Positions 3-12,513 of a stretch of DNA of 13,044 bases are shown piece by piece (the first letter of the stretch is position 1; each line of letters opens with the position of its first letter). Made by a program: the position numbers and the translations under genes. The notes beneath the pieces were generated by a model. It ran no database searches and was not told the DNA's origin. It saw nothing but the letters and a program-made list of their open reading frames with translations. The stretch comes from Pseudobacteriovorax sp. (GTDB taxonomy: Bacteria; Bdellovibrionota_B; Oligoflexia; Oligoflexales; Oligoflexaceae): contig JBNKNM010000160.1 in assembly GCA_050293845.1 (NCBI GenBank), forward strand, positions 1 to 13,044. Direction: 5' to 3'.

Positions 3-848
3 TTGGAAGCGGAGCTATTTGGCTATGAGCAGGGGGCATTTACCGGCGCGCACCGCTCTAAGGAGGGGAAGTTTTCTCGGGCCCATGGAGGCACCATTTT
101 CCTAGATGAAATTGCCAATGCTAGTTTGTTACTTCAAGAAAAACTGCTACGGATTATTGAATATGGAGAATTCGAGAAGGTTGGTGGCAATAAAACCCTT
201 GAAGTTGATGTAAGAATTGTAGCGGCCACTAACGAGGACCTTAGGGAAAAGGTAAAGCAAGGACAGTTTCGTGCAGATTTGCTGGATAGACTTTGTTTTG
301 ATGTTTTGCTAACCCCAGCACTTCGCCAACGTAAAGAAGATATCCTGCTTCTTGCTGAGTTTTTTGCTAATAGATTCATCCATCTACTGGATGAAAAAGA
401 TGCTGTTACCTTTTCTTCATCTTTTGTGGAACAGCTTTACCATTACTCGTGGCCAGGAAATGTAAGAGAACTGCGTAACGTCGTTGAGCGGTCCATTTTT
501 CATCATAATGGTCCTCTTCCCGTAGAACGTTTGATCGTTGATCCCTTTCAGGCATGCAGCCACTCAAAACCTCTAACGACAGCTACTGAGAATCAAGATT
601 TTAGCTTTACCTATGACGATGAAAAGAGCTTGCCGGAAAATCTCCGGACTATCGAATATACTGTATTGAAAAGGGTTCTGAATGCCTCAAGATTCAATCA
701 GACGGAGACTGCTGAACGCTTGCAGATAACCTATCATCAACTAAGGAATTATCTAAAGAAACATAAGTTAATTAGTAAAAGGCAAGGAGCAAAATTGGGG
801 GAGAAAGATAAAAAAACGGAAGAAACGGCTGTGGTTTCTCCCTATTAG
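3..848 (+). CDS. pspF: Phage shock protein operon sigma54-dependent activator PspF (5'-truncated by window edge)
   Basis: Contains ELFG...GAFTGA loop, Walker [39 protein letters not shown] and a Fis-type HTH FNQ...[12 protein letters not shown]. The IEYGE, DLLDRL.FDV and TYHQ motifs are PspF-typical. The frame is open at the window start. Confidence 0.9.
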
Positions 849-879: not shown

Positions 880-1545
880 TTATTGCCAAGCTATAGCGTC
901 CTGGACGCGACCGATGGGGGTGGTCGATAATTGAGATATTTGTACATATCCTCGATTGGGAAGATTAGCCCATTCACCCTCAATAGTAGCTAGGCAAGGT
1001 TCGCCTTGGGGTAACGTTTTTATGGTACTACCGTTGGGGCTGTCTTTAAGCTCGGCACCCCCGTTAATAACAAAGTATACTTTAGCATCTCCTGGTGCCG
1101 GAGCTGCCGCAGGTGGTACTTCTCCCATAGCAGTATCGGTAGGAGCGGGTGTCATCATGCTATCGGCCATAGCATTGGCCTCATCACCCCCTTGATTCAT
1201 CAAGGAGTTAAGGTCCTCCATCCCTGCCATATTTCCTTGGGAGGGTATGTTATTGGTATCCTCTTGCATGTTTTCCGGAATACCCATACCTTCCGCCCCA
1301 AGCATGCTGGCATCGTTATTTGCTAGGTTCGCCATGCTATCGCCAATGTTAAAGTTACTGGCATTGTTTTCTTGGTTTGTTTCCTCATCACCTTCTTGCT
1401 CATCTTCCTGGTCTTCATCATCCGTCTCTTCTAAACTATCGATTTCTTCCTGCTGGCTGCCGCCTCCAAATAGAGCGCAGCCTTGGATACTAGCAACGCA
1501 TAAAAAGCACCCTAAGATCCATATTAACGAGTGGCGTAATTTCAT
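880..1545 (-). CDS. Lipoprotein with acidic/Met-Asn-rich disordered region and C-terminal SH3b-like domain
   Basis: Start re-placed at ATG 1545 (AAGGG upstream). Signal peptide MKLRHSLIWILGCFLCVASIQG-C has a lipobox-like Cys, followed by an E/D-rich tract. The C-terminal VYFV...AELKDSPNGSTIKTLPQGE...GEWANL...GYVQISQLS matches the bacterial SH3 pattern. Confidence 0.75.
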   Translation of the reverse strand: MKLRHSLIWILGCFLCVASIQGCALFGGGSQQEEIDSLEETDDEDQEDEQEGDEETNQENNASNFNIGDSMANLANNDASMLGAEGMGIPENMQEDTNNIPSQGNMAGMEDLNSLMNQGGDEANAMADSMMTPAPTDTAMGEVPPAAAPAPGDAKVYFVINGGAELKDSPNGSTIKTLPQGEPCLATIEGEWANLPNRGYVQISQLSTTPIGRVQDAIAWQ

Positions 1546-1787
1546 ATCTCTGATACCCTTTCTAAATCGCAATCCAAATTTTTGCCTAACCCATTCTCGG
1601 AACAAACTGCTACTTTGCTAACTAAATGGAGATAACTATCTATAATCACATATAGTTTATTTTCATCTGCGCAAACAAACCTACCGAGGGAAGGGGAGAT
1701 GAAATTAGTTTCTTTTGCAAAGAAAAAATTGTTAGATTGCTTAGCTGTGGCAAAATTACGATTCAGTACAGGGAGATTGGATATATA

Positions 1788-2857: not shown

Positions 2858-3907
2858 TTAGTTGCCTGGGATCGCCATCATCCTATCGATCGAACGTTTG
2901 GCTTTTTCGGCAATGTCTGCTGGGACATTGATTTCATATTTTAACTCCAAAAGCGCTGCTTTGGTTTGTTCTAAGGTAATTTGAGCCATGTGGGGGCAGC
3001 GATGGCTACACAGTCTCAGAACATTTTCTTTATGGGTTTCAGCAATGATATTATCAGCCATGGAGCATTCGGTAAGCAGCAAGTATTTTTCTGCTTTTAC
3101 TTCTTTTACATATTTAATCATCGCTGAAGTACTACCAGAATAGTCTGAAGCTTCAACCACATCAGGCGGGCACTCCGGGTGGGCTAAAACCACAACTTGG
3201 GGAAATTGTTTCCTGACATTAACGATGTCAGAAACGGTGAACTGATCGTGAACTTCGCACTTTCCTGGCCAGCCTATGAAAACTTTCTTCAGGTTTTCAT
3301 GGGGTACCTGGCTCAGTTGTTTAGGGTCGGTTTCAGGTATGATCAGTCTTTTACCTGTTTCCCGGGCAACGTTTCTAGCCAGATATTCATCAGGAATAAA
3401 AATAACAGCTTCGCTATCTAAAGAAGCTACAACACGACTAGCGTTTCCCGACGTGCAACAAATATCCGTTTCGGCTTTAACATCAGCATGGGAGTTGATG
3501 TATGTCACAACGGGTACACCCGGAAATTGTTGTTTCAGATTCCTCACGTCCTCTGCAGTAATTGAAGATGCCAAGGAGCAACCAGCACGATCCGAAGGTA
3601 TTAGTACTTTGCGATCAGGGTTCAATATTTTGGCCGTTTCTGCCATGAACTCGACTCCACAGAAAACAATTATGTCAGCATCAGCCTCTTTGGCTCTATG
3701 GCATAGCTCTAAGGAGTCACCAGTGTAGTCTGCAACCCCGTGATAGACGGCAGGTTCCATATAATTATGACCTAATATCACGGCATTTTTTTCTTTTTTT
3801 AATTGGTTGATTTCATCTACTAGCTCGGCTTTTTGGCGAAGCTCAAAATCTGGAATTAAGTTAGCCATTTTCGACTTTAGCGCCTGGTAAGTACTTTCAA
3901 TGGTCAT
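2858..3907 (-). CDS. nadA: Quinolinate synthase NadA ([4Fe-4S])
   Basis: Motifs ILGHNY, GDSLEL, IVFCGVEFMAETAKILNP, AGCSLA, YINS, DICCTSGNA, CEVH, LAHPEC, GSTS and CPHM. ATG 3907 is preceded by GGAGG. Confidence 0.96.
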   Translation of the reverse strand: MTIESTYQALKSKMANLIPDFELRQKAELVDEINQLKKEKNAVILGHNYMEPAVYHGVADYTGDSLELCHRAKEADADIIVFCGVEFMAETAKILNPDRKVLIPSDRAGCSLASSITAEDVRNLKQQFPGVPVVTYINSHADVKAETDICCTSGNASRVVASLDSEAVIFIPDEYLARNVARETGKRLIIPETDPKQLSQVPHENLKKVFIGWPGKCEVHDQFTVSDIVNVRKQFPQVVVLAHPECPPDVVEASDYSGSTSAMIKYVKEVKAEKYLLLTECSMADNIIAETHKENVLRLCSHRCPHMAQITLEQTKAALLELKYEINVPADIAEKAKRSIDRMMAIPGN

Positions 3908-3952
3908 AATATTTCCTCCGTCAGGACTATCGGGACACAGAGTGTGGACAAT

Positions 3953-3980
3953 ATATCGGAAAAGTTCAACTGAGATTTGA
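3953..3980 (-). promoter_or_regulatory. sigma28(FliA/SigD)-like promoter upstream of nadA
   Basis: Minus strand reads TCAA-N16-TCCGATAT, about 45 nt upstream of the nadA ATG. It resembles TAAA-N15/16-GCCGATAA. Confidence 0.4.
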
Positions 3981-4099
3981 AAAATTTGTTCAGAATAGTT
4001 TTCGGAACTCTTGCTATTCGGGGGGATGTAGCTATTTCCCACCCCCAGAGTATTTTATAAAGTATATATTTTGGATAAGCAGACATTGTTACCAAAGGG

Positions 4100-4123
4100 A
4101 AAAAGCTCGCATGCGCGAGCTTT
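4100..4123 (-). terminator. Rho-independent terminator of the TPR-wHTH / secreted-protein unit
   Basis: Perfect inverted repeat AAAGCTCGC-atgc-GCGAGCTTT (4102-4123). On the minus strand it reads GCTCGC-GCAT-GCGAGC followed by TTTTT. Confidence 0.8.
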
Positions 4124-4156
4124 AAACTGGGCCTACCTCATATGGAATGAAATGAC

Positions 4157-4184
4157 TTCCCGTTTTTAATTTCCCGTTTTTAAT
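4157..4184. repeat. Perfect 14-bp tandem duplication (TTCCCGTTTTTAAT x2) overlapping a stop codon
   Basis: 4157-4170 and 4171-4184 are identical. Confidence 0.95.
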
Positions 4185-4681
4185 ATAAAGGAAAGGCCAG
4201 ATGCATCCGTTTCGATAGTCTCTCTCACTTGTCCTTTAAAGATATCAGCCTGAGAGCTATTAGTCTCCAGGTAACCGTCGAGAATAATGTCTTGTCCTGA
4301 GCTGTTTTTCCCGTAGACTATGCGGAAACGCTTACCTGATTCATCTAGAGCACAGATCTTCATCAATCTATAAGTCCTAACACCGTAGTTAATGGTACCG
4401 GAGCTACTATAAGAATCCATTCCTCTGGAGCAATTGACATTTGCAATAATAGCAAAGTTTTCAGAATGAGAAGAAGTTGCTGTAATTCCATTGACTTTCG
4501 ATATATTCACATCGGTAAATGTGAGGTTTAGGGGTGTCGAGTTATTGTTTGCATCGAATACTGTTCCCTCCATACCAAACGGCAAAGTACCATCGCCAAA
4601 AGGTAAAGTACCATCACCTCCCCATAGTGAGGCGCTCCAAATTAAAATTGCGCTTAAAAAAACTTGCTTGATATATCTCAT
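4166..4681 (-). CDS. Secreted hypothetical protein (171 aa) with N-terminal GDGTLPF tandem repeat
   Basis: ATG 4681 has RBS GGAGGG and lies 25 nt after the upstream gene's stop. Sec-type signal MRYIKQVFLSAILIWSASLWG is followed by GDGTLPF-GDGTLPF and a beta-rich region with two Cys. Confidence 0.8.
   Translation of the reverse strand: MRYIKQVFLSAILIWSASLWGGDGTLPFGDGTLPFGMEGTVFDANNNSTPLNLTFTDVNISKVNGITATSSHSENFAIIANVNCSRGMDSYSSSGTINYGVRTYRLMKICALDESGKRFRIVYGKNSSGQDIILDGYLETNSSQADIFKGQVRETIETDASGLSFILKTGN
4577..4618 (-). repeat. 21-bp coding tandem repeat encoding GDGTLPF twice
   Basis: GGT GAT GGT ACT TTA CCT TTT / GGC GAT GGT ACT TTG CCG TTT: three differences, all synonymous. Confidence 0.95.
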
Positions 4682-4706
4682 CTGACCCTCCGACTTTCTC
4701 AAGCAT

Positions 4707-5813
4707 TTACATATATGCGGCATGCTCTGCTTCAGCATGTACCTGGGACACCGGTTGATTATTTACCACAGAATTGTGATCTTTGGATGCTAATTTGTAA
4801 CCGAACCTTCCTGAGAGGAGACAAATGGGTTGATTTTCGTATGGCTCTATGAGGGTGCGAATACGTCGTGCTAAATCAAATATTCGAGGATCGTGAGTGC
4901 GGGCCTTGTATTTTTGATCAGGCCATAAGTGGCAGGCTATTTCTTGCTTGGAAACGAACCCAGGTTTTCGATGTAAGAATTCCAAAAAATTATAGATGAG
5001 CGGTTTGTCATGTAGGGGGATCCACTTACCAAGGACAGCAATCCTCTTGAATTCATGGTCAAATTGAAGAGGTGAAGAGAGTGAAAAATTGACATCCTTA
5101 AATTGCTCATTGACCAGGTAAGTTAGATATACCGATTCGTTGGTATTTAGGTAACAGTTTAAAAGCTCTAGGGTATTTTCTAGGGATTCCAGCTTTCCAA
5201 TTTCTTGATACATGGAGGACAATCCATAGAGACTTTTAATAATAAAATAGTTCCATTTATGGGAAATGGACTCCTTAATGACGTCATAAAAGATTTTTTT
5301 GGCAGCAGGGATATTGTTATCAAACAAGTAGGCAACATTTGCCCGTATTAGCTGATAGCTTAGGGCTTGGTCGAGAGGAACTAGATCGAGCATCTCTTCC
5401 AACTCATCAAGCAGGCGCTTAATTTCATTCGATTTATGGATGGAATAGTAGGTATTGGCTAAACCTAAAATAGCTTTGAAATAGTCTTTCACTGACTCGC
5501 TTTTGTCCGCCAAAAGTCTAAATAGTCGGATCGACTTTTCCCACTCTTTATCGCTATAATGAAGTTTTGCCATCACATAAAGGTAGAAGTCAGACTGCTT
5601 TTCTTCATGGTCAGTCAGGTTTTTTAATAAATCCTTGGCTTCTTCCACGCGATGCATTTCAAACAAAGCTTGGGATTTGTATAATTGGAGTTTAAAAAAA
5701 CTTTCTGGGGCTGGTGTAAGTTTGAGAGACTCATCAACAGCGTTTACGACTGCGCGGAACTCGCATTGGTAGCATAGGTCTTTAACTTCTTCAATAGTAG
5801 CTGTCCAGTTCAT
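4707..5813 (-). CDS. TPR-repeat protein with C-terminal OmpR/PhoB-type winged helix-turn-helix (putative transcription regulator)
   Basis: The N-terminal ~240 aa has TPR-like helical repeats (YKSQALFEMHRVEEA, VMAKLHYSDKEWEKS, LGLANTYYS, YGLSSMYQEIG). The C-terminus FVSKQEIACHLW...HDPRIFDLARRIRTLIEP...RFGYKL fits the trans_reg_C wHTH pattern. Start is ATG 5813 or 5828. Confidence 0.8.
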   Translation of the reverse strand: MNWTATIEEVKDLCYQCEFRAVVNAVDESLKLTPAPESFFKLQLYKSQALFEMHRVEEAKDLLKNLTDHEEKQSDFYLYVMAKLHYSDKEWEKSIRLFRLLADKSESVKDYFKAILGLANTYYSIHKSNEIKRLLDELEEMLDLVPLDQALSYQLIRANVAYLFDNNIPAAKKIFYDVIKESISHKWNYFIIKSLYGLSSMYQEIGKLESLENTLELLNCYLNTNESVYLTYLVNEQFKDVNFSLSSPLQFDHEFKRIAVLGKWIPLHDKPLIYNFLEFLHRKPGFVSKQEIACHLWPDQKYKARTHDPRIFDLARRIRTLIEPYENQPICLLSGRFGYKLASKDHNSVVNNQPVSQVHAEAEHAAYM

Positions 5814-5856
5814 GCACCAGTTTCCCATTTAGCAATTCATGAATGGATTATGCAAC

Positions 5857-5872
5857 TGCAGTTTTTATGCCG
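5857..5872 (-). promoter_or_regulatory. sigma54 (-24/-12) promoter for the TPR-wHTH unit
   Basis: Minus strand CGGCAT-AAAAA-CTGCA has exact GG-N10-GC spacing, is close to TGGCAC-N5-TTGCW, and lies about 30-45 nt upstream of the start codon. Confidence 0.6.
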
Positions 5873-5922
5873 CTGAAAAACTTCCATTATTGGCGGAGAA
5901 AAAGGCATAAATCGAACCAATT

Positions 5923-5938
5923 TGGCTTGATTTTAGCT
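5923..5938 (+). promoter_or_regulatory. Possible divergent sigma54-like promoter toward the DUF420 gene
   Basis: TGGCTTGATTTTAGCT has GG-N10-GC spacing but a weaker consensus match. Confidence 0.3.
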
Positions 5939-6070
5939 TAGGCGGTATAGAAATGTTACCGGTTTCATAAAAGATGATACTAAACTGCTACCATAATGCC
6001 ATGGAAAAGCCGTTTACTTTCCTCTATTATCGGGAGCTTTTCAAATTTTATTATTCTGCAGGGAGGGTTG

Positions 6071-6538
6071 ATGGAAGGACAGGGATTTTTAGGGACGAGA
6101 GCTCCATTTATTTTAGATATTTTGGCTATTAGCTTAGTGTTTGTTATCTTTTTTCAGATTTTGAGTATTATTCTTGTAAAAGCTAGACATTATGGAGTGC
6201 ATAAGAAGATTCAGTTAGTAACTGGCTGGGGTATAGGTTTTTTAATTATTGGGTTTGAATTGCAGATGAGGATCATAGGTTGGCGGCACCTGGCGGAGGA
6301 CTCCCCTTATTTTGATAGCTTTCTTTACCCGTCTCTATTGCTACATCTAATTTTTGCTATTCCAACGTTTTTACTCTGGGTTTTTACAATTTATGGTGCA
6401 ATTAAAAATTTTGACGTGTCACCAAGGCCGTCTAAATATAGTATCATACATAAGAGGTTTGGAAAGTTATCCTTTGCTTTAACAATAGGAACTTGCTCAA
6501 CAGCTTGGTTATTCTACTGGTTGGCTTTTGTCAGTTGA
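6071..6538 (+). CDS. DUF420 family inner-membrane protein (4 TM)
   Basis: GFLGTRA..LD start, HKKIQ, H..FA and HKRFGK histidine motifs, with four hydrophobic segments. ATG 6071 follows GGAGG. Confidence 0.8.
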   Translation: MEGQGFLGTRAPFILDILAISLVFVIFFQILSIILVKARHYGVHKKIQLVTGWGIGFLIIGFELQMRIIGWRHLAEDSPYFDSFLYPSLLLHLIFAIPTFLLWVFTIYGAIKNFDVSPRPSKYSIIHKRFGKLSFALTIGTCSTAWLFYWLAFVS

Positions 6539-6571: not shown

Positions 6572-7303
6572 ATGACTCAAGAGGTGTCGATGAAGGAAAA
6601 GCGCGGAGTTTTGGTCTGTATCTCCGGGAAGAGAAAAGATGAAATAGTTAAGTTACGACGTGATAATACAATTTTCGGTCGGGAAAAGGCCGATATCATT
6701 GTTAGTGATACAGAAGTATCGGCAACCCATTGTCAGATTCAAAATATCGACGATCATTACCATATATTTGATATGAATAGCAGCAACGGTACCTACCTGA
6801 ATGGAGAACGGATCGTCAAAGCCAAGCTATCTGAAGGAGATGTGATAGAAATTGGTAAAACAAGTTTCCGTTTTGCCCTTGAGGATGAGAAAAATGTTCG
6901 CCACATTCCCACTCTTTTTACATCAAGTCAGCAGAACCCCAAAGATCGGTCGACAAGTATAGTAGATACTCTTATCGAAGACGAACTTAATGCCACAAAA
7001 GATGTTCAATTAATCATTCATGTAGAATACGGCGACGGTGAGAATGAAGTGATTGAACTCCTGCAAAGAGTTGCTTTTATTGGTCGTGCTTCTAGTTTTG
7101 GACATTTTGATCAGGATACAGAGATTTCGCGTAAGCATTTAATGATAAAGCTGAACGATACTGGAGAAGTTTTTGTTGAAGACCAAGGATCTACCAATGG
7201 TTCATATATCAATGGTGAAAAGATTAGTGGTATGCATCTCGTCAAGCCCACCGATCAAATTAAGGTGGGGCGGTGTCTTTTGTCAATATTGCCAAAATCC
7301 TAA
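6572..7303 (+). CDS. Tandem FHA-domain protein
   Basis: Two FHA signatures: FGR...VSATH...DMNSSNGTYLNG and IGR...ISRKH...DQGSTNGSYING. Alternative start ATG 6590 follows GAGG. Confidence 0.9.
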   Translation: MTQEVSMKEKRGVLVCISGKRKDEIVKLRRDNTIFGREKADIIVSDTEVSATHCQIQNIDDHYHIFDMNSSNGTYLNGERIVKAKLSEGDVIEIGKTSFRFALEDEKNVRHIPTLFTSSQQNPKDRSTSIVDTLIEDELNATKDVQLIIHVEYGDGENEVIELLQRVAFIGRASSFGHFDQDTEISRKHLMIKLNDTGEVFVEDQGSTNGSYINGEKISGMHLVKPTDQIKVGRCLLSILPKS

Positions 7304-7510: not shown

Positions 7511-8872
7511 TCAGCCTTTTTTTGCAAAAGGATAATAATCTTCCTTGAGAAACGGGCTACTTAGTTGACAAACTACGATACTATTGCCGTGCTCAGAAGA
7601 ACGAATATCGACGACCTTTCCATAGACTTCCATTTTTTCTCGCGTATCAATCACTCTGATTAGGCCAAAATTTGCTAAACGTGTTTCTGTTTGAATTTCT
7701 ACTAAATCGTGCTCCCAGGCAGTGATTGTTCCCGAAAATTCAAGCTCACTATAAGAGAAACGATGGGTGGGGGAAATGTATATATTTTTATCATTTTTTT
7801 TCCCTTTTTTAGTTAAATATGTAGTTAGAATCAGCTCGGGAAGGTTTTTGGGAATTTGCGCAAGGGATTCGACGCGTCGCCCTGAGGAGAAGTTGCGGAA
7901 GCTTGGTAACTGTTCTTCCTTAGCTCCAACAACTACAATTGTACTGTTTTCAGGAATATAATTAACCATCTCCTGAAATCTGGACATGGCTTCGCCTTCA
8001 CAAAGGCGATACTCAATAAAAACCAAACGTGGGGTGAAGTATTTAGGTTCACTCACTAGGCTTTTTTTCTGTAAAGCAGTGTGGACATCATATAATTCGG
8101 GGTTAAGATATTTTAGTAAAGTATTTCTAAGTGCCGGAGACTGGATTGCTAGAAAAACTTTTGTTCTAGACCCAATATTGTGTTCTCGTAGCTCGTCGAT
8201 AACATCGCTGATCTTTTCTGATTGCGTTGACTTTGCGAGCCAGTCGCAAACCATGCCCTCAGAAAACCGATAGACAAGATTATTTTGTTCATGGGAACAT
8301 ACTTTGAGCTCTAAACTAGAGCATCCCATATCTTCTGCAAGACACCCTACTAATTTAAGGGAGTCAGAAGTTTTGGGTCGGGCTCGACTTTCGACCCAAA
8401 TCTGTTCTCCATTTATCCAGGCTATTCTGGAAGGTATAAAAATTTTGATGGCTGTAGGAGCCTTGGCTTTCTCTGTGTGAAAAACATTATCAGCACTCTT
8501 GCTTGCCGTTGAAAATTGAAACCTCGCTAACCATTTATTGTCATCAAGAGTGATGGGTATGATATCGCGAAACCCATTTCCTGCAGCATAGCGACAAAGG
8601 TTGACACTCATCTCTGACTGGGAAAGTATTAGCCTTGCCCCTTGTATGACTGGCAAATTAGATAAGATATCTATGGCTTCCACACAAGCAGACTCTTCTC
8701 CTTCATCCCCAATGATGACAATCGATACCCTCTTTGCATTAAGGCTTGCGGTCAACTCTTGAATCGATGCAAAGAAAGTCACATCAAAGTCAATATCAGC
8801 CAGAAGTTGTGCTCGGGCTTCATGGAGAGGTTTTGTCTTGTTAACTAGCCAATAAATACCTTGGCGTTTCAT
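7511..8872 (-). CDS. Hypothetical protein with two degenerate receiver(CheY)-like domains, each followed by a beta-rich domain
   Basis: Start re-placed at ATG 8872 (GGAGA RBS). REC-like patterns are KRVSIVIIGD...ARLILS...GFRDIIP and KVFLA...PRLVFIE...TIVVVG. The phospho-accepting Asp is not clearly conserved. Confidence 0.6.
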   Translation of the reverse strand: MKRQGIYWLVNKTKPLHEARAQLLADIDFDVTFFASIQELTASLNAKRVSIVIIGDEGEESACVEAIDILSNLPVIQGARLILSQSEMSVNLCRYAAGNGFRDIIPITLDDNKWLARFQFSTASKSADNVFHTEKAKAPTAIKIFIPSRIAWINGEQIWVESRARPKTSDSLKLVGCLAEDMGCSSLELKVCSHEQNNLVYRFSEGMVCDWLAKSTQSEKISDVIDELREHNIGSRTKVFLAIQSPALRNTLLKYLNPELYDVHTALQKKSLVSEPKYFTPRLVFIEYRLCEGEAMSRFQEMVNYIPENSTIVVVGAKEEQLPSFRNFSSGRRVESLAQIPKNLPELILTTYLTKKGKKNDKNIYISPTHRFSYSELEFSGTITAWEHDLVEIQTETRLANFGLIRVIDTREKMEVYGKVVDIRSSEHGNSIVVCQLSSPFLKEDYYPFAKKG

Positions 8873-8913
8873 ATCTTCTCCCTGGAAAATTGAATTCCAG
8901 CATATGAAATTAT

Positions 8914-8940
8914 GCATCGGTTTGTCTAAGGCAGAATTAA
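8914..8940 (-). promoter_or_regulatory. sigma28-like promoter upstream of the pseudo-receiver gene
   Basis: Minus strand TTAA-N15-ACCGATGC, about 40 nt upstream of ATG 8872. Confidence 0.35.
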
Positions 8941-10568: not shown

Positions 10569-11444
10569 ATGAGTAAATCAGAATTTCATAAGATTGCGCT
10601 AGAAATTAAGCCTAGCCGTTTTATTGATTACAAAAATTACCTGAAAGAGATGTACCTCCATGCAAAGCAGCATTTCGGTAGGTACTCCTACATCAAGTTT
10701 ACAGAGGAACTTGGCTTAGGGCACTGTAATGCCATGTATTTGATAATCCATGGGAAGCGTCCTTTAACTTTAAAAGCTGCCAAGAGAATTGTGCAGGCCT
10801 TAGGGTTAGTTGGTATCGAAAGACAGTATTTTTTGAAACTCGTTGAGGTTTCAAAGGTTACTGATCCTGCGGAACGAGACAAGGCATTTGACGCGCTGCT
10901 TCAGGTTAAAAGTCGCGCCTTACCCCGAGATATCGATAAGGATCACCTAAAATTTTACACAGAGTGGTACCATGGGGCTATCTTAGAGCTTTTAGGTCAA
11001 AGGCACTCTAGCGGTGATCCAGAGTGGTTAGCAAAAACATTAATACCGCGCATCACACCTACCAAAGCACAACAAAGCCTTGAGCTTCTTGAAAAAATTG
11101 GTTTTGTGAAACACGATTCAGATACAAATCGATTGGTTCCTTCACAAGAACATATTTCAACTGGGCCCGAAGTCATTGGCATGGCCGTGATTTCTTACCA
11201 TCAGCAGATGATTCAATTAGCAAAAGAATCATTAACCCGGATTGATCCCTTCGACAGAAATATTTCAAGTGTAACCATCTCTCTTAATCGCGCAGAACAA
11301 GAATTACTCAAACAAAAAATGGATGAGTTTAGACGCGAGATCATTGGAATGTCAGAAGAAAGCGCAGCAGATAAAGATGTTATGCAGGTTAATCTGCAAA
11401 TGTTTCCGCTGGCAAAAACAGGAAAGGAACCAAGTGATGAGTAA
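10569..11444 (+). CDS. TIGR02147 family / DUF4423 domain protein (N-terminal HTH-like, putative regulator)
   Basis: Family motifs DYKNYLKE, YSY..F.EELGL, IIHGKRPLT, E..YF..LV, WYH.AILEL, DPEWLAK.L.P.IT, YHQQMI.LA.ESL, RNISSVTI and VMQVNLQMFPL. Confidence 0.9.
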   Translation: MSKSEFHKIALEIKPSRFIDYKNYLKEMYLHAKQHFGRYSYIKFTEELGLGHCNAMYLIIHGKRPLTLKAAKRIVQALGLVGIERQYFLKLVEVSKVTDPAERDKAFDALLQVKSRALPRDIDKDHLKFYTEWYHGAILELLGQRHSSGDPEWLAKTLIPRITPTKAQQSLELLEKIGFVKHDSDTNRLVPSQEHISTGPEVIGMAVISYHQQMIQLAKESLTRIDPFDRNISSVTISLNRAEQELLKQKMDEFRREIIGMSEESAADKDVMQVNLQMFPLAKTGKEPSDE

Positions 11445-12513
11445 TCTGTGGTTACTGACCCTGATTTTAATAGCTTCCTGCGCCATAGAAGTAGGAAACC
11501 CGCACCCGACTTCAACGGGAGGTGGTAAATCAGCGGTACAGTTGACATTACAATCAAATGGAGATTTAGCTGTCGATCAAGTCGATCTCAACCTTGTCGG
11601 GTTAAAACTAATCCGCCGTGATGCTGAAACCCGTAATATTAGTTTCTCAAGTTTTAAGGAAATTACAATTAAAAAATCCCAAGGCGAAGCTTTTCGGATT
11701 TATAAAGGAAGTACTCAAAAAACAGGAAACTATGACAGAGTTCGTATGTATTTTAACAAAGAAAATTTTGGGAAAGTGATCTCAAAGCAGCAAGAGTATC
11801 CTCTTTCCCTAGGTCAGCAAGAAAGTTTTCTGGATGTTCCGATTCAATTCAGTTTACGCTATGGTGAATTAACTAAAATTAACCTAACTATAGATGCAGC
11901 CGATATTATTCAAGAGATAAAGGACGGTTCAGGTCAGGTCACATCATATCAGGTCAATGCTAACCAGATGAGTGCAGAAGCAAATTCAGAGGTTGAAGAT
12001 GTCCGTGTGATTACTGATGAGCCAGCTTACAAAAAATTTAGGATAGCTGTTAGCAAAGTCAATGATGGTAGCGAATTTCACATGCAGAGACTTGCATTAA
12101 TGGTCAATGGGACCTGGGAAACGAGTGTGGTTGAAAAGGGGGATGGAGTTACTGACCTGGGAAATAATAAATCTGGCCTCAATATTGGCTCCTATAGTGT
12201 CATTGTTTCGGCATCTGGAAACTCAAAAGATGCTTGGCGGATATTTGCCAACGATGAGATCGTCAGGAATATTTACGAATCGAATGGAGAATATAATAAC
12301 GATGGTATCCATAGAAATGGAAGTGCAGAATACGTAGAAATTGAATTCTACCAAGATGTTTCCATCACAGGTTATGAATTTTCTGGAGATGATAATAAAA
12401 ACTGCGCTGATGACTATGAAATGCAAGCCACGGTAGATGGTGTTAGCTGGGTCACTATTGAAGGTTCTCGGTCAACTTTTGAAGCCTGTGAATTAGTTAA
12501 TGTTAATTGGTAA
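11437..12513 (+). CDS. Lipoprotein with DUF4382-like N-terminal domain and discoidin/F5-8 type C-like C-terminal domain
   Basis: The likely true start is ATG 11437 (AAGGA RBS, 8-nt overlap ATGAGTAA with the upstream stop). Lipobox LIAS-C. DUF4382-like VDQVDLNLVGLKL...GNYDRVRM...FSLRYGELTKINLTID. Discoidin-like SAS...AW..F...EYVEIEF...ITGY...YEMQATVDGVSWVTI. Confidence 0.75.
   Translation: MSNLWLLTLILIASCAIEVGNPHPTSTGGGKSAVQLTLQSNGDLAVDQVDLNLVGLKLIRRDAETRNISFSSFKEITIKKSQGEAFRIYKGSTQKTGNYDRVRMYFNKENFGKVISKQQEYPLSLGQQESFLDVPIQFSLRYGELTKINLTIDAADIIQEIKDGSGQVTSYQVNANQMSAEANSEVEDVRVITDEPAYKKFRIAVSKVNDGSEFHMQRLALMVNGTWETSVVEKGDGVTDLGNNKSGLNIGSYSVIVSASGNSKDAWRIFANDEIVRNIYESNGEYNNDGIHRNGSAEYVEIEFYQDVSITGYEFSGDDNKNCADDYEMQATVDGVSWVTIEGSRSTFEACELVNVNW

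Follow-up and report, generated by a model that had tools for sequence, protein, structure and literature searches.

The window, the whole 13,044-nucleotide (nt) stretch of DNA analyzed here, is contig C160 of a Pseudobacteriovorax genome. Its minus strand contains a compact two-gene module over 4102-5960. The order is palindrome, sigma54-type box, regulator gene, exported-partner gene, and terminator. The regulator is predicted to join an N-terminal tetratricopeptide repeat (TPR) superhelix to a C-terminal winged helix-turn-helix (wHTH). The partner carries short DGTLP-type units close behind a signal peptide, and the two genes form a conserved pair. The module looks like peptide signaling of a kind not described in Gram-negative bacteria, with the binding itself putative. 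We tentatively propose, at somewhat less than even confidence, that the TPR sensor takes the peptide units as its ligand, in a logic like that of the RRNPP receptors but with a different architecture. A first-pass annotation had read this region as a self-contained minus-strand unit, and every element that it listed is present at or near the position it gave.

The regulator, the exported partner, and their pairing

Pairing was counted with hidden Markov models (HMMs) of both proteins, at loci with a regulator match at E ≤ 1e-30 and enough downstream DNA. Three loci at contig ends (L014, L047, and L056) and three with weak regulator matches (L048-L050) were left out, and L044 and L046 duplicate L053 and L054. 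A partner homolog lies directly downstream of the regulator in 52 of the 56 assessable loci, which come from four GTDB families and from metagenomes. It is found there on the same strand in 25/26 genome loci (the miss is G071) and 27/30 metagenome loci (the misses are L072, L077, and L084). Because the loci are related to one another, these counts are not independent events. The gap between the two genes ranges from -59 to +65 nt. One genome (G014) has the pair split over two contig ends, and two others (G007 and G068) contain two complete regulator-partner pairs each. A search with the partner profile gave 27 hits in 24 of 131 genomes. Twenty-six of these hits adjoin a regulator homolog, and one, in G007, is an orphan. 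Neighboring genes vary between families, and a search of the surroundings in different families gave no further gene that stays with the pair. The first-pass annotation had proposed, as a check, that the genes downstream of regulator homologs consistently encode a signal peptide and a short GDG-type motif. The 52 loci bear this out, and they exclude the lack of conserved gene pairing that it had named as evidence against its reading.

Four loci have unusual arrangements. L077 encodes a signal-peptide protein with the motif NGSLPV that is unmatched by the partner HMM. In L072 the regulator is divergent and the gene immediately after it encodes NadA; a partner gene is absent. The orphan partner (L087, G007:C29, 2442-2885, plus strand) encodes a signal peptide followed by GGDGTLPFN, with no regulator within 2.4 kb; it sits after a PilZ-like open reading frame (ORF) and a small ORF. 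L054 (G071:C87, 1033-3677) contains a divergent regulator (E = 2.8e-72), a 254-amino-acid (aa) membrane protein, and a 198-aa signal-peptide protein with GGTVPV that the partner HMM likewise fails to match. This locus may be a remodeled version of the module.

The regulator was detected at E ≤ 1e-20 in 27 of the 131 genomes of its GTDB phylum. By family it is present in 18/21 genomes of f1, 5/12 of f13, 2/2 of f3, and 1/1 of f6. A pattern scan of one genome per species (185,579 species) gave 23 loci. Twenty of them are titled Oligoflexus, Pseudobacteriovorax, Oligoflexales, Oligoflexaceae, or Bdellovibrionota, and three have generic Proteobacteria or Pseudomonadota titles. The module is restricted to one order, Oligoflexales. 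At least two carriers are cultured, Oligoflexus tunisiensis Shr3 and Pseudobacteriovorax antillogorgiicola, and the carriers include an algal predator, strain FD111. The host genome of the window contains 6.68 Mb in 741 contigs and is 96% complete. The nearest named relatives of the window's proteins are from P. antillogorgiicola (74% identity) and Oligoflexus (Bdellovibrionota, Oligoflexia, Oligoflexales). No paralog of the regulator or the partner was found in the window's own genome. In P. antillogorgiicola both proteins are annotated as hypothetical or uncharacterized. One UniRef entry for the regulator names the C-terminal domain only.

The regulator ORF spans 4707-5828 on the minus strand and encodes 373 aa. 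In an alignment of 41 database homologs, the homologs begin at the equivalent of M6. The likely start is therefore 5813, which gives a gene at 4707-5813 with a product of 368 aa. The regulator retains 27-82% identity and is far more conserved than the partner, and the C-terminal third is the most conserved region of the alignment. The AlphaFold2 model has a mean predicted local distance difference test (pLDDT) score of 88.2 and a predicted template modeling (pTM) score of 0.83, with pLDDT above 90 over most of the TPR region. In the numbering of the 373-aa ORF, it contains a TPR-like superhelix of 13 helices at residues 8-242 (5103-5807, minus strand) and an OmpR/PhoB-type wHTH at residues 252-346 (4791-5075, minus strand). 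An arrangement with the TPR first, an OmpR-type wHTH last, and no receiver domain had been anticipated in the first-pass annotation, and the model agrees with it.

The TPR assignment comes from the model and from fold searches. Foldseek gave 17 matches at E ≤ 0.001 to the regulator model, and all those listed are TPR proteins (LapB, Rap, anaphase-promoting complex [APC] subunits, MalT domain III, NprR, and PlcR). The VIA-align Z scores were 19.4 for the APC subunit 4ui9_O, 16.9 for PlcR (2qfc; root mean square deviation of 3.8 over 210 residues), 16.8 for Rap, 16.7 for NprR, and 14.7 for AimR. Pfam TPR families matched below their cut-offs only, and Pfam ComR_TPR matched 1 of 24 family members (E = 0.0015). 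TPR superhelices like that of the modeled N-terminal domain bind extended peptides. The similarity of this domain to PlcR, Rap, NprR, and AimR is within the range of generic helical repeats, with the APC subunit and other TPR proteins scoring higher, and is evidence of the fold and not of kinship with RRNPP receptors.

The modeled wHTH contains strands at residues 252-257, 262-265, and 268-271, helices at 276-287, 294-301, and 314-327, and strands at 337-340 and 343-346. This predicted domain has the OmpR/PhoB effector topology, with a beta-sheet, three helices, and a beta-hairpin wing. In profile searches, the regulator family aligns weakly with the whole effector domains of RegX3 (2oqr; E = 0.0024, 95 positions) and of 2k4j (E = 0.013). 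The window's regulator scores 12.9 bits against Pfam PF00486 (Trans_reg_C; E = 0.12), below the membership cut-off of 26.2 bits. Of 24 regulator family members, 6 match PF00486 at E ≤ 1, the best of them at E = 0.025. The regulator has no receiver domain. No hydrophobic segment was read in the 373-aa sequence, and all helices of the model belong to the TPR or the wHTH. The regulator thus appears to be a cytoplasmic one-component protein with the TPR as its sole candidate sensor.

The partner gene is at 4166-4681 on the minus strand and encodes 171 aa, and its orthologs have the same start. It lies 25 nt downstream of the regulator stop, where a signal-peptide gene had been annotated. The spacer includes a GGAGGG ribosome-binding site at 4686-4691. 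The N-terminus of the product, MRYIKQVFLSAILIWSASLWGG, resembles a Sec signal. The protein reads as a Sec-type signal, MRYIKQVFLSAILIWSAS, then LWGG, then GDGTLPF twice (residues 22-35; 4577-4618, minus strand, as two 21-nt units), and then the rest. As read from the sequence, the signal peptide takes up residues 1-21 (4619-4681, minus strand). An n-region, h-region, and AXA pattern is common to all partner orthologs. By the -3/-1 rule, signal peptidase cleavage is likely after SAS (residue 18). Since this would leave LWGG ahead of the repeat, the repeat probably lies near the mature N-terminus and not exactly at it. The first-pass annotation, which took GDGTLPF-GDGTLPF as the predicted mature N-terminus, was close to this.

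The partner model (pLDDT 77.2) is an eight-stranded meander beta-barrel at residues 35-169 (4175-4579, minus strand), in line with the beta-rich domain of about 135 aa expected from the sequence at first pass. The pLDDT is 59 for residues 21-30, which hold the first repeat, and 85 for residues 31-40. A Cys pair is conserved across the partner family, with one Cys nearly invariant. VIA-align matched generic barrels, with Z scores of 10.6 for the designed barrel 6czj_B, 10.3 for Cap15, and about 9 for avidins and OmpA-type proteins, and Gid4 was also matched. OmpA, OmpW, and PagL score 8.6-9.4 and soluble barrels 9-10.6, which is similar. The C-terminal residue is nonaromatic in all family members, and the modeled barrel closes with a strand of six residues. 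The Cys pair and the nonaromatic C-termini favor a soluble exported protein over an outer-membrane barrel.

The partner has no Pfam family and no fitting NCBIfam family, and Foldseek gave no match to its model at E ≤ 0.001. Three weak hits were treated as noise. The first was an NCBIfam match to the fimbrial protein StfG (E = 0.0021, 17.7 bits against a cut-off of 253 bits). The second was Ivy, the inhibitor of vertebrate lysozyme, in a PDB profile search (E = 0.034 over 45 positions). The third was an ESM Atlas result with a best score of 0.79, in which the top three were hypothetical clusters. The Ivy match spans partner profile positions 87-131, around the conserved Cys region, and is probably due to chance. 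A profile search of 1.84 billion representatives gave 147 cluster representatives of the partner family at E ≤ 0.001 and 100 at E ≤ 1e-10. The family diverges fast, with 16-35% identity to the window's protein, and its precursors are 120-230 aa long.

The DGTLP motif

The motif of the family is [DE]GTLP[LFI]. It is present in one to four copies just after the signal peptide, and in most cases x[LM]xG comes next and connects it to strand 1. It is the best-conserved part of this fast-evolving protein. One copy is found, for example, in P. antillogorgiicola, G007, G008, G003, G023, and G026. Two copies are found in the window's genus, G005, and G069, three in G063 and G068, and four in the metagenome loci L071 and L079. 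Among the 147 representatives, a loose core pattern gave 0, 1, 2, 3, and 4 copies in 12, 78, 41, 14, and 2 proteins, respectively. A strict pattern gave 0, 1, 2, and 3 copies in 43, 65, 30, and 9. Some of the zero-copy representatives are N-terminal fragments. The repeat period is 7 residues in the window's genus and in L071 and 10 residues in family f13.

The copies within a gene keep their peptide while their codons diverge. The two 21-nt units of the window differ at three synonymous sites and nowhere else. In L071 the four EGTLPF units each have a different DNA spelling. Across 43 within-gene pairs from 18 loci (258 codon comparisons), there were 139 synonymous and 18 nonsynonymous differences, which indicates that purifying selection acts on each copy separately. 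With synonymous differences at over half of the codons compared, recent duplication or gene conversion is excluded as the source of the identical copies. Judged from these codon differences, the copies are old and individually constrained, including the distal ones that lie outside the barrel.

Variants of the motif include DGVLPL, DGSLPL, D[GS]TWPL, DGTLPV, and GTIPL. A variant is usually the same in all copies of one protein. Motif positions 3 and 4 are identical in all copies in 45 of 57 multicopy representatives, a value reached by none of 2,000 shuffles. In six-frame ORFs of at least 60 aa from the 6.68-Mb genome, the loose motif occurs at nine places. The only occurrences behind a signal peptide are the two in this gene. 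A general sorting tag is excluded, since no other ORF of the genome has the motif in that position.

Motif variants were compared with changes in the regulator, in a set of 41 full-length regulators with paired partners. The residue F190, numbered from M6, lies in a conserved WNYF segment. It is F in 38/38 regulators paired with Thr at motif position 3 and W in 3/3 regulators paired with Ser or Gly there (L020, L045, and L076). These three are in three places of a quick maximum-likelihood tree, and its well-supported branches require two or more separate changes. The empirical null is the frequency of triples with any deviant residue in common at a conserved TPR column, which was 15 of 1,100 for triples from three clades and 4 of 71 for long-branch triples. 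The Trp-variant partner (L073) goes with Y86H, F98I, and L50Y in its regulator, and the GDVILPL paralog of G007 goes with N120G and W187M. Variant-motif regulators have 6, 5, 3, 6, and 8 changes at conserved TPR columns, against 1 to 5 in twelve similarly diverged regulators (one-sided Mann-Whitney P = 0.006). For the wHTH, the corresponding P value was 0.12. Covariation of the motif with the TPR domain is suggestive. The first-pass annotation had proposed a check for covariation with the TPR groove. The change of F190 to W in all three Ser/Gly lineages is a post hoc observation on alignment columns. Cofolding of residues 1-240 of the regulator (TPR domain, alignment A3) and residues 21-171 of the partner (mature form, alignment A4) scored 0.00 twice with controls not folded and speaks neither for nor against binding.

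Promoter and genomic setting

A sigma54-type -24/-12 element, cGGCAT-N5-cTGCA, is located at 5857-5872 on the minus strand, upstream of the regulator. The sequence at 5857-5871 is GGCATAAAAACTGCA, with GG at 5871-5870, ten bases, and GC at 5859-5858. The pattern GGCAY-N5-YTGCW has no other match in the 13-kb window. At least one such match occurred in 34 of 200 shuffles, so the single box alone is not significant. Of 24 homologous loci, 21 have a GG-N10-GC box with at least 8 of 11 consensus positions in the 160 nt that precede the regulator. By chance, 0.075 such boxes would be expected per 160 nt at these loci, and 0.061 from the genome as a whole. The genome contains rpoN. The sigma54 assignment is based on this conservation across loci and not on the match in the window. 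A sigma54-type promoter, with the spacing of GG and GC and the flanks conserved in position, is supported by the homologous loci, and the GG-N10-GC promoter motif proposed at first pass holds up at this box.

A palindrome-like element of 17 bp, GGTAACATTTCTATACC (GGTAwCA-N5-TwwACC), is at 5960-5944 on the minus strand. It was recognized in an alignment of four upstream regions, and its center is about 82 nt upstream of the -24 GG. Most f1 loci, and some of those in f3 and f13, have the form GGT-N11-ACC ahead of their -24/-12 box. The element is likely the site of a sigma54 enhancer-binding protein. Alternatively, it could be the regulator's own operator. The module ends in an intrinsic terminator at 4102-4123 (minus strand), with a 9-bp stem, a 4-nt loop, and a T-run. 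The first-pass annotation had listed a terminator here as well. No RNA datasets covering 4100-5900 were listed. Five DNA runs from two studies contain the stretch wholly or partly.

The flanking genes are unrelated to the pair. NadA is encoded downstream at 2858-4042 (minus strand). A DUF420 protein (5996-6538, plus strand) and a double-FHA protein (6572-7303, plus strand) are encoded divergently upstream. The gene order double-FHA, DUF420 membrane protein, regulator, partner, NadA is preserved across genera of GTDB family f1. The window also contains other genes. The C-terminal part of a sigma54 enhancer-binding protein (AAA+ and Fis-type HTH) is encoded at 3-848 (plus strand); it is truncated by the window edge and lies 5 kb from the module promoter. 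No Pfam family matches a 241-aa ORF at 880-1605 (minus strand), which starts like a signal peptide or lipoprotein, with a Cys after the hydrophobic part, and has a long, acidic central region of low complexity. A 468-aa ORF at 7511-8917 (minus strand) has no Pfam or NCBIfam match at E ≤ 0.01. A TIGR02147/DUF4423 family protein is encoded at 10569-11444 (plus strand). Its end is overlapped by a 396-aa ORF at 11323-12513 (plus strand), which has a weak DUF4382 match and whose real start is probably further downstream.

Proposed mechanism, alternatives, and known systems

In the proposed mechanism, the sigma54 promoter and the conserved upstream palindrome would drive one bicistronic transcript. 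The first product would be a cytoplasmic one-component regulator, with the TPR as its sensor and the C-terminal wHTH as its output. The second would be a Sec-exported, disulfide-bearing, eight-stranded barrel protein. Its flexible N-terminal tail would display one to four units of 7-10 residues with the pattern [DE]GTLP[LFI]x[LM]xG. The DGTLP units would most likely be clipped from the barrel in the envelope and then taken up. Binding of a unit to the TPR could switch the wHTH and so close a feedback or cell-cell loop. We infer the binding of the motif to the TPR, the release and import of the peptide, and whether binding activates or represses. Such a route would depend on a protease and an importer, because the motif is on an exported protein and the regulator is without a membrane segment. 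In its fullest form, Oligoflexales would use an encoded peptide signal. The barrel would be a multicopy propheromone or a protease reporter, clipped by the cell's own protease or by one of prey or host, and the released peptide would be imported and bound in the TPR groove. This fuller version is possible but doubtful. The first-pass annotation had suggested an analog of RRNPP signaling. The pairing, the architecture, and the selection on the motif agree with that suggestion; the architecture that defines RRNPP systems and a pherotype-like diversity were not found.

Several observations weigh against the TPR as a receptor of the DGTLP units. The motif is almost constant across the four families and is for that reason not pherotype-like. 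Typical pheromone systems diversify. The motif and the regulator are in different compartments, and no protease or importer is encoded in the module. In the model, the second (proximal) copy of the motif continues into strand 1 of the barrel. The barrel fold and the Cys pair are conserved, so the partner has a role beyond carrying a peptide. The exported protein is thus more than a propeptide. Three to four loci with divergent regulators have no partner. The covariation comes from few related lineages, with groups chosen post hoc and a quick tree with long branches. A position of its central residue, F190, in the TPR groove is conjectural.

The main alternative, a regulator with a cargo, is possible, if rather unlikely. 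Here the units would dock on some conserved partner in the envelope or outside the cell, perhaps by beta-strand augmentation on a periplasmic protein or on prey or host material, and the TPR-wHTH protein would control the cargo, or be coexpressed with it, and sense something else. A folded, disulfide-bearing exported barrel without an importer or protease in the module is what would be expected of such a cargo. A near-invariant motif would also be expected if its target were a conserved housekeeping protein, and one orphan copy of the partner occurs without a regulator. The strict reciprocal co-occurrence, cotranscription, and overlapping or nearly overlapping genes argue against this reading. 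The pair is present twice in two genomes, changes at conserved TPR positions track the motif variants, and the regulator has no other sensor domain, all of which count against a mere cargo.

A switch coupled to secretion is unlikely. The TPR would bind the motif on the unexported precursor, and export would remove the antagonist or cofactor, so that the activity of the regulator would report export flux. This resembles the logic of TPR chaperones and coactivators in type III secretion and of FlgM export. It would need neither a protease nor an importer, and it would fit a motif placed directly behind the signal peptide. One transcript would keep both proteins at a fixed ratio, and several copies of the motif would add avidity. 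Sec precursors are normally short-lived in the cytoplasm, however, and the conserved Cys pair and the barrel point to a function after export. To our knowledge, such a switch has no precedent with a Sec signal.

We also consider an indirect relay improbable. The barrel would bind a small periplasmic ligand and signal through an unlinked membrane protein. The motif would be a docking site, and the TPR would receive the cytoplasmic part of the relay. The barrel resembles avidin, calycin, and Cap15 folds, which often bind ligands, and wHTH regulators cotranscribed with periplasmic barrels do exist (ToxR/ToxS and VtrA/VtrC). The absence of a third conserved gene beside the pair in different families speaks against such a relay, and the regulator is without the membrane segment used in ToxR/ToxS and VtrA/VtrC.

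A merely structural or processing role of the motif, as a barrel cap or signal-peptidase environment with a neutral, accidental duplication, would suit the last copy, which enters strand 1 with a pLDDT of 85 for residues 31-40, and the single-copy forms of many lineages, but it is very improbable and is disfavored because the distal copies too are held by purifying selection: they lie outside the barrel (pLDDT 59 for residues 21-30), they kept their peptide while the codons diverged (139 against 18), there are up to four copies in all, and repeat periods differ between lineages.

Even if the TPR is not the receptor, the module contains an exported barrel family with 147 representatives and no Pfam or NCBIfam model, and it shows unusually clear selection on each copy of a short linear motif. 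As a candidate for peptide signaling it is compact. It consists of two genes and a 7-residue candidate ligand, with natural one- to four-copy forms and motif variants (DGVLPL, DGSLPL, and D[GS]TWPL) that come with matching receptor variants.

Several known systems share parts of this design. In yeast alpha-factor and in multicore precursors of ribosomally synthesized and posttranslationally modified peptides (RiPPs), several identical short peptides are in tandem in one exported precursor. In contrast to these, the partner has no recognizable dibasic or leader-type sites, its units abut or are 3-10 residues apart, and a folded domain follows them. SARP/BTAD and HilA-type regulators combine an OmpR-type wHTH and TPR-like helices in one protein, with the wHTH N-terminal. 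Here the wHTH is C-terminal, and the Pfam BTAD match reaches only E = 0.17. We know of no secreted-peptide partner of SARP/BTAD or HilA-type regulators. OmpR/PhoB response regulators have the same effector topology as the module's regulator, which has a TPR superhelix in place of a receiver or phosphorylation site.

In ToxR/ToxS and VtrA/VtrC, a wHTH regulator is cotranscribed with a periplasmic barrel cosensor. The likeness to the module is the operon order, an OmpR-type wHTH regulator followed by a gene for a small exported beta-barrel. In ToxR and VtrA, which span the membrane, the wHTH is N-terminal and the barrel is contacted by a periplasmic domain, whereas the regulator here has no hydrophobic segment and a C-terminal wHTH. 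It is therefore not a bitopic protein of that type.

The closest likeness is to the RRNPP(A) systems (Rap/Phr, NprR/NprX, PlcR/PapR, PrgX, and AimR/AimP), in which a gene for a cytoplasmic TPR receptor lies beside the gene for an exported precursor of a 5- to 10-residue peptide. RRNPP receptors have an N-terminal HTH or phosphatase helix bundle followed by the TPR, whereas in this regulator the TPR comes first. The DNA-binding domain is an XRE-type HTH in RRNPP proteins and an OmpR-type wHTH here. The RRNPP peptide is present once, at the C-terminal end of its precursor. The units of the module are N-terminal, in one to four copies, on a precursor of 120-230 aa with a folded barrel. The host belongs to a Gram-negative lineage, against Bacillota for RRNPP. 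The strings DGTLPF, DGTLPL, GDGTLP, and DGTLPI were not found in the searched literature, with subscription papers and supplements outside its coverage. The peptide PapR7, ADLPFEF (PMC6568020), has an LPF core in common with the DGTLPF motif; this is a resemblance only and is provisionally taken as coincidence.

In the searched literature on TPR/wHTH regulators with secreted peptides in Gram-negative bacteria, the one match was the RRNPP_Detector study, whose introduction assigns peptide signals to Bacillota and small molecules to Gram-negative bacteria (PMC10075063). A conserved pair of TPR regulator and exported peptide in Oligoflexales would, if true, widen this Bacillota-only picture. The module is at most an RRNPP analog. 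If the fuller version with release, import, and binding of the peptide is true, it would be the first RRNPP-like cytoplasmic peptide receptor in a Gram-negative phylum, independently evolved and with a reversed domain order.

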